In this document: piece by piece, positions 78 through 3,390 of the stretch
How the letters are laid out: every line of letters starts with the position of its first letter
Position numbering within the stretch: position 1 is the first letter of the stretch
Source of the DNA: an uncultured Bacilli bacterium
Lineage (GTDB): Bacteria > Bacillota_I > Bacilli_A > RF39 > UBA660
DNA: 64,000 nt
Reading direction: 5' to 3'
NCBI GenBank assembly: GCA_947581765.1
Contig: CANPVU010000002.1
Coordinates: 123 to 64,122 of the forward strand
The notes under the pieces: generated by a model
What the model was told of the DNA's origin: nothing
What the model saw: only the letters and a program-made list of their open reading frames with translations
Database searches by the model: none
Program-made: the position numbers and the translations under genes

Positions 78-141
78 TTTTTCCTTATTTTATCTTACTT
101 TCCACAACAGTTTTTGTATTTCTTTCCACTTCCGCAAGAAC
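78..141. repeat. Direct repeat, left copy: degenerate duplicate of the secA 3' end including its stop codon (att-like site)
   Basis: 78-109 is identical to 3327-3358 (32 nt). Similarity with scattered mismatches continues to 141/3390. The minus strand reads [15 protein letters not shown]-stop, preceded by an in-frame stop at 143-145. Confidence 0.8.
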
Positions 142-161
142 TTTATTTTCCTATATTATCA

Positions 162-263
162 GTATTATTTGTACTTATAGTATTACTTGTATTTATTGTA
201 TTTTGGTATTAGGTATCATCTGTATTATGTGTATTTTCTGTATTATCTGTACTATAAGTATTT
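162..263. repeat. Degenerate tandem array with 9-bp period, about 12 units, core GTAYTW
   Basis: GTATTA/GTACTT/GTATTT/GTATCA cores start at 162, 171, 180, 189, 198, 206, 213, 222, 231, 240, 249 and 258. It lies just inside the left islet boundary. Confidence 0.7.
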
Positions 264-359
264 TCTAACGTGGACTTTTTGTGGACATTGACCACATTCG
301 TTCACTAATATGAGTATAACACATTTTTTATATTTTATAAAATGTGAAACTTTAAATAT

Positions 360-1082
360 TTAATAAAGTTCTTCAATAAATTGATATAGTGTATTGTATA
401 TATCTTCAAATGAAATAAATTTTAAATTAAATATAAATGATAAATCAGTTGTTTCAGTATGAATATTTAAAATTTGAGGATATTTTTTTTGAAGTTCATC
501 AAAACTTGTACCTTTTCCATGCTTATAAACATTTATAATATTTCTATACAAATCTATTTTTTCTTTAATACATTTATCTATATGTTTCCCTTCTTTTTCA
601 AGAATATCTATACATGAAAAAAATGTGCTTAAATTTTTATTTTTATATTTAGAAAATAAAAATACAGACAATTCTTTTTCAATATATAAATATATTTGCA
701 TAATAAAACTCATGATTAAATTGTATTTAATAGTTTTATATATATACAATTTTTCCCAACTTTCATATAAAAGATCTTCAACCTTTTTATCATTATTTTG
801 AATATCTTTCAAATCTATTTCTTCAATAGCACTATCCCATGCTAATAAACCATTATCAATTAACAATGAAATTTGTTTTAATGTTGGATCAAAAAATTGC
901 TTAATTACTGCATTTATATACTTTTTTTCTGATAAACTTATATTTTTTTTAGCCTTTATAGTATATGACTTTTTTAATATTGCCTTTTCATTATAATTTT
1001 TAATTATAAATTCATATTCCTTTTTTATAGTACTTAACATCTTTTTTGATTTCTTTATAAAAATATTATAATTAATTTCCAC
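360..1082 (-). CDS. Hypothetical protein, islet cargo; no family recognised
   Basis: 240-aa ORF predicted to be helical. Near the C-terminus it reads LYRNIINVYKHGKG, only loosely like an R-x(n)-H HEPN motif. Confidence 0.6.
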   Translation of the reverse strand: MEINYNIFIKKSKKMLSTIKKEYEFIIKNYNEKAILKKSYTIKAKKNISLSEKKYINAVIKQFFDPTLKQISLLIDNGLLAWDSAIEEIDLKDIQNNDKKVEDLLYESWEKLYIYKTIKYNLIMSFIMQIYLYIEKELSVFLFSKYKNKNLSTFFSCIDILEKEGKHIDKCIKEKIDLYRNIINVYKHGKGTSFDELQKKYPQILNIHTETTDLSFIFNLKFISFEDIYNTLYQFIEELY

Positions 1083-1123
1083 TACTGCTTACCTCCATTT
1101 TTAGTTATATTATACCATTTATA

Positions 1124-2346
1124 CTATTTTAGTTTAATAGTACTCTCTAATTTTTTAATTACATTTTCCTTATCTTTATTTACACTTGAAATATAATATT
1201 TTTCTGTTGTTTCAATTCTTTTATGTCCTAATATTTCAGCAATGTCTTTTATTTCACAACCACTCCTTAAACTAATAGTAGCAAAACTCCCTCTTAAATC
1301 GTAAAATCTACAATTAATTCCTAATTCGTGATGAATTATTTTAAAAGGATATCTTATAATATCAGTTCCTGAATATGTTCCATCTTTTCGAGTAAATACC
1401 AGTTGAATTTTATTATCTTTTGAATTTTTTTCTATAATTTTATATTCTACTAACTTACCATATTTATTTTTTATTTCTCCCAATACATATTGCTTATATT
1501 TTTTACTATATTCTTTTTTATAAGTATTTTGCAATTTTTTATAATCAAATAATATTGAATATAAAGTATCACATATATAAACATCTCTTTGGCTTCCTTT
1601 TGTTTTAGTTGTTCCTAAATACCATCTGCCATTTTCTTCTTTATCTTTTGCATATACGGTTTTATTTATTTTAATAATTCTATTATCTAAATCTATATCG
1701 TTCCAAGTTAATGCAAATACTTCTCCTGTTCTCATTCCAGTATAACAAGCCGTAAGAAATGCTGTTATAAATACTTTATTATTTTTAAATCTATTTAAAA
1801 TTAGTTCTATTTCTTTATTAGTATAAACATGACTTACATTGTTTTTTTTAATTCAAATGATAATACTCTAGGTATTTGTAAATCTGCTGCTGGATTATAT
1901 TTAATAAATCCAAAATAATATGTGGCATCTCTTAAAGAACTTTTTATAACTTTTTGATAATTTCTTAATGACTCTTTTTTACTTGATGTTTGATATAATT
2001 TTAACAATGCTTGATTAAGAATATATGAAGTTAAAGCCGATAATTTATAATTACCGATTTCCTTTTTTATATTACTAAAAGACTCTTTATATCTCTTTGC
2101 AGTTGAATATTTATAGTTTATTTCAAAATATTCTTTCATCCAATAATCTAAATAATCGCTATATAACATATTACATTCACTACTTGTTACTCCATTAATA
2201 AATTCATCATATGCTTTTTGTCCTGCTATATATGCTTCATTTTTAGTTCTAAAACCACTTTTTGTTATTTGTTTCCTTTTTCCATTTACCTTCCCTGCTT
2301 CAAAGCAATATTGATAAACACTACCTCTTTTTCTAATATTGATCAT
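1124..2346 (-). pseudogene. int: Tyrosine recombinase (phage/ICE-type integrase) split by a frameshift in a homopolymer
   Basis: ORF 1834-2346 has an arm-binding-type N-terminus (RKRGSVYQYCFEAGKVNGKRKQITKSGFRTKNEA). ORF 1124-1735 has the catalytic region (MRTGEV, YDLRGSFAT, LGHKRIETTEKYY). The downstream frame stays open up to 1850, and one extra A in the A8 run (T8 on plus, 1842-1849) fuses both frames. Confidence 0.85.
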
Positions 2347-2403
2347 ATTTCATTCTCCTCATTTCTTTTCTATTATATAAAAATAACTAGTATCATAAAA
2401 TAA

Positions 2404-3117
2404 CTAGTTATTTTTATCTTGTATATCTATAAATTCCAATTTTTCTAGTGTTGAAAAATTAACTTTTACTTCTTTATTATATTTATTTATGATTAAAAAA
2501 TAATCCTTTAACAAACTAAATATACTTTTAAAATATATATTATAAAAAGTTTCATCGCTTTTTGTTTGAAAAGGTAATAATTTATTTATTTGTGACAATA
2601 CGTGTATATCACCTGAAAAAAAATTATACATATAACCATATTTATATTTTCTTGCTAGTTTTCCATATGTTTTTTTATCTTTAAATATTTTTAATAATCC
2701 CTGATTACTATAATTAATGTCTTTTATATTTAAATTTGTCGCTCCTAGTTGCTTGTTATATGCCTCAATAGATGCTTCAACAATTATTTTTTCATCAATA
2801 TTTTCTTCTTCTATTTCTTTTATTAAAGAAATTTGTTCAATTATTTGCCTGCATAGCATCGATATATATGATGGATAAATTATATTGCTATTAAATTGTC
2901 TGCAAAATTCACTTGTTATATTCATTGCTAAATGAAATACAATTAAATTATTTTTTCTAATCTTTATACTTTGTTTTTCATAATTCACATCTTTATTTAT
3001 ACTTTTTAAGTAATTTACCATTGAGATTCTATATATAAGTAAACTAATCCAATATATTTTATTTTTAATATCTTTATAATTATCTAAATTAACTTTTGTA
3101 TATATCTTTTCAAACAA
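2404..3117 (-). CDS. Hypothetical protein, islet cargo; no family recognised
   Basis: 237-aa ORF starting at TTG. The frame stays open upstream to about 3195 with no ATG, so the start is uncertain. AAAGGAG lies at about 3201-3207 on the minus strand. Confidence 0.6.
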   Translation of the reverse strand: MFEKIYTKVNLDNYKDIKNKIYWISLLIYRISMVNYLKSINKDVNYEKQSIKIRKNNLIVFHLAMNITSEFCRQFNSNIIYPSYISMLCRQIIEQISLIKEIEEENIDEKIIVEASIEAYNKQLGATNLNIKDINYSNQGLLKIFKDKKTYGKLARKYKYGYMYNFFSGDIHVLSQINKLLPFQTKSDETFYNIYFKSIFSLLKDYFLIINKYNKEVKVNFSTLEKLEFIDIQDKNN

Positions 3118-3326
3118 ATTATTTTCAAAAATCTCTTTATGATATTTTTTGTCAATATCAATACCACTTATAATATTATCTAACTCTTTTATTGATGTTC
3201 ACTCCTTTAACAAAAAGGATGTCAACAAATTTATTTTTGTTAACACCCTTTATTTTAAATGGATTTTGTCCACATTTTATTTAATTGGTTGACAAACAAC
3301 AAATTTGTCACTTTTTTAATATTGAT

Positions 3327-3390
3327 TTTTTCCTTATTTTATCTTACTTTCCACAACAATTTTTGTATTTTTTTCCCGAACCACAAGGAC
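3327..3390. repeat. Direct repeat, right copy: the functional secA 3' end and stop codon (att-like site)
   Basis: Pairs with 78-141. Covers the secA stop (3344-3346) and the [15 protein letters not shown] codons. Confidence 0.8.

Follow-up and report, generated by a model that had tools for sequence, protein, structure and literature searches.

A small integrative islet at the 3' coding end of secA in an uncultured Bacilli bacterium, and the conserved frameshift of its integrase family

We analyzed a stretch of 64,000 nucleotides from an uncultured Bacilli bacterium of the RF39 lineage (contig CANPVU010000002.1, forward-strand positions 123 to 64,122; the whole stretch is referred to here as the window), in which the gene for the secretion ATPase SecA is followed by a small element bracketed by a direct repeat. 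Window positions ~131-3385 are a 3,249-bp integrative islet carrying a lambda/Tn916-type tyrosine integrase and two cargo genes. Very probably, site-specific recombination placed this islet in the 3' coding end of secA, with its own attachment site (attP) bringing in a substitute end for the gene; its integrase would be made via a slip at a run of eight A's (A8). In the mechanism that we propose, the integrase would recombine attP with the codons for the second Cys and the Gly of the CPCGSG motif in secA. The last 11 secA codons, the stop codon and a terminator hairpin are then supplied by attP, so that the working C-terminus of SecA is element-encoded, and the former secA tail remains as a dead stub at the far end. 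The regenerated secA end is again a target, and its reuse here has given rise to a tandem array. A slip of one base at A8, in either translation or transcription, would yield the catalytic enzyme as a rare product, the default being a DNA-binding fragment of 170 amino acids (aa).

Occupied and empty sites at the end of secA

The secA gene lies on the minus strand at 3344-5833, with its TAA stop codon at 3344-3346, and encodes the complete set of SecA Pfam domains, including the C-terminal SEC-C zinc motif (an in-frame TTG at 5899, upstream of the ATG at 5833, is an alternative start). The segments 78-109 and 3327-3358 are identical at 32/32 nucleotides (nt) in direct orientation and bracket the islet downstream of secA; the extended similarity, 49-141 against 3298-3390, amounts to 81% over 93 nt. 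Both the perfect repeat and the weaker similarity reaching 141/3390 had been reported in the original prediction, and both hold. Resampling window 1-6000 under a first-order Markov model (200 replicates) gave longest exact repeats of 14.5 nt on average and of 18 nt at most. The G+C content is 0.18-0.24 in the islet and 0.27-0.35 in secA.

Evidence for insertion comes from a conspecific, islet-free contig, L098 (compared contigs and loci are given here by such L numbers). Its SecA (P0241) is identical to the window SecA at 828/829 residues, and it matches window 15832-3312 with 99.67% nucleotide identity over 12.5 kb. Positions 12449-12584 of L098 then correspond to window 136-1 at 99.3%, and the intervening 3,249 bp are absent. 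The original prediction had proposed a search among close relatives for an empty site, and L098 provides it: here secA runs directly into the sequence that forms the distal copy and the left flank in the window.

A second, independent pair of occupied and empty sites was found in other species, at ~82-83% nucleotide identity. In L076, secA is separated from a run of eight host genes by an islet of 3.1 kb whose integrase belongs to this family, and in L052 the same eight genes begin 10 nt after secA. The distal tail in L076 (attR, KYKH, GGTAGTGGTAAAAAATATAAACAT) equals the native tail of L052, and the working tail (attL, KYKN, GGTTCGGGTAAAAAGTATAAGAAT) is near-identical to the working tail of L006, which comes from a different host. 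The tail swap thus turns His into Asn in L076; in the window the swap is silent in the protein, the SecA tails of the window and L098 being identical.

These comparisons allow the point of exchange to be placed by aligning the empty site with the two junctions of the window:

L098 (empty): ...CCA TGT GGA AGT GGA AAG AAA TAC AAA AAC TGT...
Window secA end (attL): ...CCT TGT GGT TCG GGA AAA AAA TAC AAA AAT TGT...
Window distal junction (attR): ...(islet) TCT TGC GGA AGT GGA AAG AAA TAC AAA AAC TGT...

From GGA on, attR is identical to L098 all the way through window position 1, and attL shows four further codon differences between the Cys-Gly codons and the 32-nt repeat (L098/attL GGA/GGT, AGT/TCG, AAG/AAA and AAC/AAT), against a background divergence between the window and L098 of 0.33% of sites overall. 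It follows that the exchange took place within (A/T)TG(T/C)GG. As judged from this alignment, strand exchange maps to these ~7 bp, at 3380-3386 and 131-137, 36-42 nt upstream of the stop codon, and the bound obtained from L076/L052 agrees. With the crossover at the Cys-Gly codons, the last 11 codons, the stop codon and the 3' untranslated region of the working secA gene are islet DNA. The locus can thus be divided as follows:

3380-5833, minus strand: the host's share of secA, starting with the ATG (5833) and ending with the Gly codon of CPCGSG; SecA Pfam domains; 99.67% nucleotide identity to L098
3380-3386, minus strand: attL crossover region, T-TGT-GGT, i.e. (A/T)TG(T/C)GG(T/A), from the three-way comparison of L098, attL and attR
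3344-3379, minus strand: element-supplied secA end, last 11 codons and TAA; only synonymous differences from the L098 tail
3327-3358, no strand: proximal copy of the 32-nt repeat, comprising the last 4 secA codons, the stop codon and 17 nt of 3' untranslated region
131-137, minus strand: attR crossover region, T-TGC-GGA
95-130, minus strand: displaced former secA tail, 11 codons and TAA; identical to the working L098 tail
78-109, no strand: distal copy of the 32-nt repeat, identical to 3327-3358

Several details of the original prediction have to be revised in this light. Insertion was said to have occurred exactly at the stop codon, which is incompatible with a crossover at the Cys-Gly codons and the four codon differences in attL beyond it. 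That the element brings a substitute 3' end for its target gene was correct; the assignment of the two copies was the reverse of what we find, since the proximal copy belongs to the element and the distal one is the displaced tail. The distal copy does have the upstream in-frame stop that was described, on the minus strand 15 codons before the terminal stop, and its differences were said to be both synonymous and non-synonymous; between the Cys codon and the stop there are five codon differences from the secA copy, including Ser AGT vs TCG, and 5/5 are synonymous. A crossover inside the 32-nt identity was also considered and is ruled out by both the L076/L052 and the window/L098 comparisons. 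On these alignments, the 32-nt identity is simply the stretch in which the old and the new secA tails coincide.

The tail type GGTTCGGG is common to the secA ends of the compared occupied loci, across host species. A 27-nt portion of the 32-nt repeat is found at secA ends and at the boundaries of units with other cargo (L023, L078, L084, L147); the repeat is therefore an element-type sequence. The original prediction had suggested searching for the core in other genomes.

Arms, integrase family and tandem arrays

Between the repeats there are four minus-strand open reading frames (ORFs), at 2404-3117, 1834-2346, 1124-1735 and 360-1082. The regions on either side of them have the character of attachment-site arms:

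3193-3343, minus strand: P' arm, with TTTGTCAACC at 3287-3296, ATGTGGACAAAA at 3264-3275 and a terminator hairpin plus T-run at 3212-3251; from an 8-islet alignment
138-349, minus strand: P arm, with a promoter-like element at 313-341 facing the attachment site, the block AGTGAACGAATGTGGTCAATGTCCACAAAAAGTCCACGTTAGA at 264-306 and 9-nt-periodic ATAATAC-type repeats at ~141-263

The P arm is conserved across nine islets. The hairpin at 3212-3251 folds at -23.3 kcal/mol (z = -5.7), and we read it as a putative substitute terminator for secA; it was revealed by folding, and a consensus terminator scan gave no match for it, probably because the loop and stem rules of the scan are unsuited. Motifs of the GTGGAC/GTCCAC type occur in both arms, those of the P arm (264-306) in the orientation opposite to those of the P' arm, and together with the ATAATAC-type repeats they are candidates for arm-type integrase sites. 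An Rfam search of window 1-3500 returned no match. No relaxase, conjugation or mobilisation module was found among the four ORFs with Pfam, NCBIfam and PADLOC. As for a possible integron, the NCBIfam integron-integrase models scored 47 bits (cut-off 265) and 27 bits (cut-off 435), and the unit boundaries are secA tails rather than attC sites.

When its two parts are joined by adding one A, the islet integrase is a protein of 407 aa, and it has many full-length relatives of 402-425 aa. Relatives with 82%, 83% and 66% identity are located just downstream of secA in different hosts and next to different cargo, such as a protein kinase, Fic, an MqsR-type toxin with a SocA/Panacea protein, a radical-SAM protein and DUF3800; RhuM-family, Fic and KilA-N proteins are other recurrent islet cargo. 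In related uncultured Bacilli, 49 species-representative genomes extend 3 kb or more past secA. Extra secA tails were found downstream of the gene in 15 of these, a homologous integrase in 17, and one or both in 23. The association was also evident in an independent metagenome sample, where secA lay upstream on the same strand in 24 of the 27 integrase copies with enough upstream flank, and the SecA C-terminal regions of these hosts are only 33-61% identical to that of the window.

A more distant and very abundant clade of integrases, 52-54% identical to that of the islet, occupies the right end of larger elements, with an HTH_17 gene resembling xis, the excisionase gene, directly upstream. 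Some 290 nt past these integrases, the same P-arm repeats recur together with the core and a displaced secA tail. Two of the three P0090 contexts have prfB immediately behind the displaced tail, and the third has one extra gene between them. Specificity for the secA tail is therefore a trait of the whole clade. The hosts are among uncultured gut Bacilli, "Tenericutes" and Clostridia metagenome-assembled genomes. This is a widespread and apparently undescribed family of gut-bacterial elements. The original prediction had called secA an unfamiliar target, and our literature search agrees: we found no paper naming secA as an attachment site in the full-text literature, with supplementary tables and subscription journals outside the scope of the search. 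A second, distant clade (37-39% identical, in frame) was observed in L032, L034, L036, L041 and L048, where the integrase starts 150-250 nt after secA, TGTCCACA-type motifs then follow, and the whole is part of larger elements.

The sequence to the left of the distal repeat had been taken as plain flank in the original prediction. It proved to be something else:

1-94, minus strand: beginning of the left ("type 2") arm belonging to another, related islet, with motif AGTAAGTTGGTTCTAGTTTTATAACTTGTTAACC at 27-60; not native chromosome

An arm that directly follows secA in L080, L084 and L095 matches both the 77 nt left of the distal repeat and the 195 nt behind secA in L098. The same type 2 arm, including a similar terminator hairpin, is present after extra secA tails in L060 and L068, and the L084 and L095 islets to which it belongs carry integrases of this family. 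The left flank is therefore the arm of a related islet, and the window islet was inserted between secA and this older one. The arrangement indicates that the reconstituted secA end served as a target again and that the window islet stands in front of the older islet in a tandem array. An older islet beyond the left edge would fit with the end of the source contig, which is only a few hundred bases away. Tandem arrays at secA are common: L001 has three tails, L060 has four, and in L006-L009 an intact islet is followed by a degraded one.

Other arrangements were seen at the same position. In L164 (5307-5500), a large xis-int element of the 52-54% clade is followed directly at its right end by a TCG-type tail and a P' arm of the window type (TTTGTCAAC...ATGTGGACA), which puts mini-islets and large elements into a single array at secA. 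Units of 1-3 kb between two secA-type tails, without an integrase of this family, are present in L016 (12449-15240), L023, L024, L029, L035, L037, L061, L083, L090 and L094, with cargo that includes DUF4379 and an acetyltransferase. Such units may be decayed islets or units moved in trans, in a somewhat cassette-like manner. We had considered L016 and L017 (SecA 90%) as an empty site with its own terminator and rejected this, since the "terminator" recurs after extra tails elsewhere and L016 has a second tail 2.7 kb downstream; L016 is now read as a probable integrase-less unit. L088 has, at 19593 and 8.6 kb downstream of secA, another copy of the secA end that is longer and takes in residues upstream of the core; it may represent a displaced fragment of greater length, or else belong to a second secA-like gene.

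The frameshift in the integrase and the alternatives to be weighed

The tyrosine recombinase that the original prediction placed between the repeats is confirmed by its Pfam matches, and is divided over two reading frames:

1834-2346, minus strand: zero-frame ORF of the integrase, 170 aa; PF14657 at 30.7 bits (cut-off 22.3) and PF14659 at 27.6 bits (cut-off 22.6)
1842-1849, minus strand: A8 run, TTA AAA AAA ACA ATG TAA; slippery A_AAA_AAA in the zero frame, with TAA two codons on
1124-1849 (ORF 1124-1735), minus strand: -1-frame part of the integrase, catalytic domain PF00589 at 60.2 bits (cut-off 27.1)

The zero-frame ORF consists of an arm-DNA-binding domain and a SAM-like core-binding domain, the heterobivalent architecture of lambda/Tn916-type integrases, and all of the catalytic residues lie downstream of the shift. 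R206, K248, R352, H375 and Y385 (numbering of the joined 407-aa protein) are invariant or nearly so in an alignment of 118 sequences, and the first His of H-x-x-R is replaced throughout the clade by an invariant Tyr (Y349-x-x-R352). A slippery heptamer of the form X_XXY_YYZ is present at the ORF overlap, as TT A_AAA_AAA CA. A -1 slip, or one extra A in the mRNA, gives ...SFELKKNNVSHV..., colinear with the intact relatives, with SFELKKNNVSHVYTNK as the predicted trans-frame peptide. The A8 of the window is reproduced in an independent read set, and the same run and frame relation occur in L039 (twice), L076, L077 and L095. Just upstream of the GAGGAG ribosome-binding site, at 2372-2410 on the minus strand, two copies of the direct repeat ACTAGTTATTTT overlap a TATAAT box; this region, between cargo gene 1 and the integrase start, may be the promoter/operator of the integrase gene.

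The frameshift is not peculiar to the window. A metagenome scan with a pattern that accepted any run of at least seven A's recovered 61 copies, in which the run was A8 in 58 and A7 in three, and A9 or A10 in none. In every A8 copy the zero-frame stop is two codons past the run. Both halves fell within the contig in 41 cases, and ~31 of these had an intact N-terminal part (168 aa or slightly longer) together with an intact C-terminal part of 238-262 aa in the -1 frame. Clustering at 95% identity gave 24 clusters, with A8 in 22 and a mixed state in none, and 18/20 representatives below 97% identity from both sets have A8. The ratio of nonsynonymous to synonymous substitution rates (dN/dS) among A8 copies is 0.10-0.15 for the N-terminal part and 0.14-0.26 for the C-terminal part, and 0.16-0.26 for the catalytic half at dS values of 0.55-0.9; in-frame copies are much alike in the catalytic half (0.11-0.28). 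Reduced synonymous variation upstream of the A-run was examined as a recoding signal and discarded, because the search pattern had itself selected those bases.

A8 predominates, both halves are intact and purifying selection acts on them, which agrees poorly with a dead pseudogene, with random sequencing error and with fast phase variation alike. Programmed recoding, as ribosomal frameshifting or transcriptional slippage, appears to be the best fit to the A8 data, and we favor it by a small degree. The broader proposal would be that the whole clade makes its integrase by A8 recoding, following the OrfA/OrfAB logic of IS3 with a 170-aa default product, and uses the SecA zinc-finger end as a broad-host landing pad on which arrays of small units accumulate; we would give this about even chances. 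Under recoding, the short product might act as a regulator or directionality factor in mini-islets without xis, and some of the arrayed units would lack an integrase. In L006-L010, a 14-nt deletion by the A-run (integrase residues ~168-175) restores the frame relative to the close A8 relative L076, and L078 (15857-15918) has an A7 run with a second, compensating shift ~17 codons upstream; each resembles a different way out of the frameshift.

Recoding has to be weighed against the view that the A-run is a phase-variable switch, off at A8 and on at A9, or a sequencing error. Homopolymers mutate fast, the states A7, A8 and A9 all exist in the family, and reversible switching would likewise maintain purifying selection. 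These points keep a switch or an error credible, though we consider either unlikely: 58/61 unselected metagenome copies are A8 and none is A9 or A10, and near-identical clusters drawn from different samples have no mixed run lengths. Moreover, assemblies evidently resolve A9, since the A9 lineages are A9 in 5/5 and 4/4 contigs, and A8 recurs across assemblers and studies. The same data bear on the more pessimistic reading of the islet as an immobile fossil with an integrase pseudogene, a first cargo gene that has lost its start, and no ability to move alone. This would account for the frameshift in the window integrase, the ATA in place of ATG in cargo gene 1, the lack of a xis gene and of any observed circular form, and the degraded integrase remnants in the relatives L006-L009, L072 and L084. 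It is distinctly improbable, however, given that the A8 frameshift is the family norm with both halves intact and under purifying selection, that every catalytic residue is intact, and that the islet is polymorphic between strains 99.7% identical, which makes the insertion recent. A prophage remnant or phage satellite was suggested by the match of the integrase to PHROG integrase families and by a weak PHROG match, of unknown function, for cargo gene 2. Such an origin is very improbable, because there are no structural, replication or packaging genes in the 3.25 kb, no relative of the integrase and no match to the P-arm/core pattern in IMG/VR, and no viral fold match for cargo gene 2. Finally, a local duplication of the secA end, independent of the integrase, would explain the bare existence of the repeat and nothing else. 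It has practically no probability left, as it is already refuted by L098 and L076/L052: the islet is precisely absent from L098, and the arrangement recurs with related integrases, other cargo and conserved arms in dozens of genomes.

A number of observations nevertheless weigh against an active islet or against recoding. There was no direct sign of islet excision, with neither a circular junction nor a restored site in reads, and no HTH_17 or Xis-like ORF that could encode an excisionase was found in the islet. One contig of 3,279 nt (L099, Logan ERR10663675; 3,249 + 30, window 3358-80) was considered as a circular form and rejected, for its ends lie inside the 32-nt repeat, as would be expected of a k=31 graph break, so it is uninformative either way. 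What L099 does show, being bounded by the 32-nt repeat, is that this repeat breaks k=31 assemblies, which probably explains why contigs of the window species end near secA. All of the sequences are metagenome assemblies, and L098 ends 195 nt after secA, so that the second islet is deduced from its arm only. Cargo gene 1 has ATA (3190-3192) where its homologues in L006-L010 have ATG, and this copy may be impaired or partly decayed. With respect to recoding, two lineages are in frame with A9 and one has returned to frame through the 14-nt deletion; no stimulatory RNA structure was found in the 72 nt downstream of the run (z of -0.6 to +1.6 against shuffles), which also counts in favor of a phase switch; and the fusion protein is a predicted product.

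Relation to known systems, cargo and neighborhood

The closest parallel in target use is provided by e14 and phage 21 of Escherichia coli, which integrate into the 3' end of icd. In both cases a tyrosine integrase recombines within the 3' coding end of a housekeeping gene, the substitute end is mostly synonymous so that the gene stays functional, and the far junction retains the original end as a stub. Among the features by which such insertions are recognized, the window islet has occupied and unoccupied sites with junctions at the duplicated target segment (window/L098 and L076/L052) and a substitute end that keeps the frame and the protein. It differs in using the SecA zinc-finger tail as its target, in replacing only ~11 codons, in being a 3.2-kb element without phage genes, in the reuse of its site for tandem arrays, and in an integrase that needs a frameshift.

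For the frameshift itself, the comparison is with the transposases of the IS3 and IS1 families, which are made by programmed -1 frameshifting on A-rich heptamers. The likeness extends to the zero-frame A_AAA_AAA, to an upstream ORF that binds DNA and a downstream -1 ORF that is catalytic, and to the maintenance of this arrangement across diverged copies. In contrast, the window enzyme is a tyrosine recombinase instead of a DDE transposase, no stimulatory structure accompanies the heptamer, and the case is known from sequence alone. Transcriptional slippage at A-runs and -1 frameshift motifs have been surveyed in E. coli (Sharma et al. 2014, PMC4066793); the main text of that paper makes no mention of an integrase or recombinase. 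Nor did our full-text search, within the limits given above for secA, find a paper on frameshifting in a tyrosine integrase.

ICEs (integrative and conjugative elements) and IMEs (integrative and mobilizable elements) of Firmicutes also have tyrosine integrases that use the 3' ends of conserved genes (fda, rplL, rpsI, rpmG and guaA), and they undergo tandem accretion (PMC4701971, PMC5357655, PMC5704250). The word secA is absent from the main text of these three surveys. The window islet resembles these elements in the arm-binding, SAM-like and catalytic domains of its integrase, in the use of a conserved gene end as attB (the chromosomal attachment site), in tandem accretion and in its small accessory cargo. 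It has no relaxase, no oriT-associated gene and no xis, and so it cannot be filed as an ICE or IME, whereas the related 52-54% clade does have xis-int. The islet differs from what is known in its target, in being very small with neither xis nor a mobilisation module, in how densely tandem and integrase-less units occur at the site, and in the conserved frameshift of its integrase.

These results place secA among the conserved genes with a 3' end used as an attachment site, the part used being the Cys-Gly codons in its C-terminal zinc finger. Mobile DNA encodes the functional C-terminus of an essential protein in many gut Bacillota. The target motif is conserved at the protein level across hosts as divergent in this part of SecA as described above, which makes the integrase and its attachment sites a candidate landing pad for the engineering of uncultured gut Bacilli and Clostridia. 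The gap between secA and the next gene is a hotspot for small accessory units with RhuM, Fic, kinase and toxin-antitoxin genes, and annotation pipelines will misread such units as secA fragments. The conserved A8 frameshift, for its part, offers a testable case of site-specific recombination controlled by recoding, none having been found described for tyrosine integrases in the full-text literature searched.

The cargo of the window islet itself consists of two genes:

2404-3192, minus strand: cargo gene 1 (listed ORF 2404-3117, 237 aa, TTG start at 3117); family present at the same position in L006-L010
360-1082, minus strand: cargo gene 2, 240 aa; 25 homologues; predicted all-helical (AlphaFold2, AF2, pLDDT 86.8)

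No Pfam, PADLOC or NCBIfam match was obtained for either gene. The single-sequence AF2 model of 2404-3117 is too poor to use (pLDDT 38), and cargo gene 2 had no PDB or BFVD fold match. Going by the company kept in related islets, both genes are probably accessory, of an addiction or defense type. The cargo gene 2 family has an invariant R180...N184...H188-G189 cluster near the C-terminus of the predicted all-helical fold; that this recalls the HEPN-type RNase motif is only an impression, with no profile or fold match behind it.

Upstream of secA there are hpf and a cold-shock gene, and then an agr-type quorum-sensing locus (window 6560-9018 and beyond) with AgrB at 6964-7596, a small AgrD-like ORF at 7577-7699 and a histidine kinase at 7729-9018. 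This arrangement is syntenic in all close relatives.

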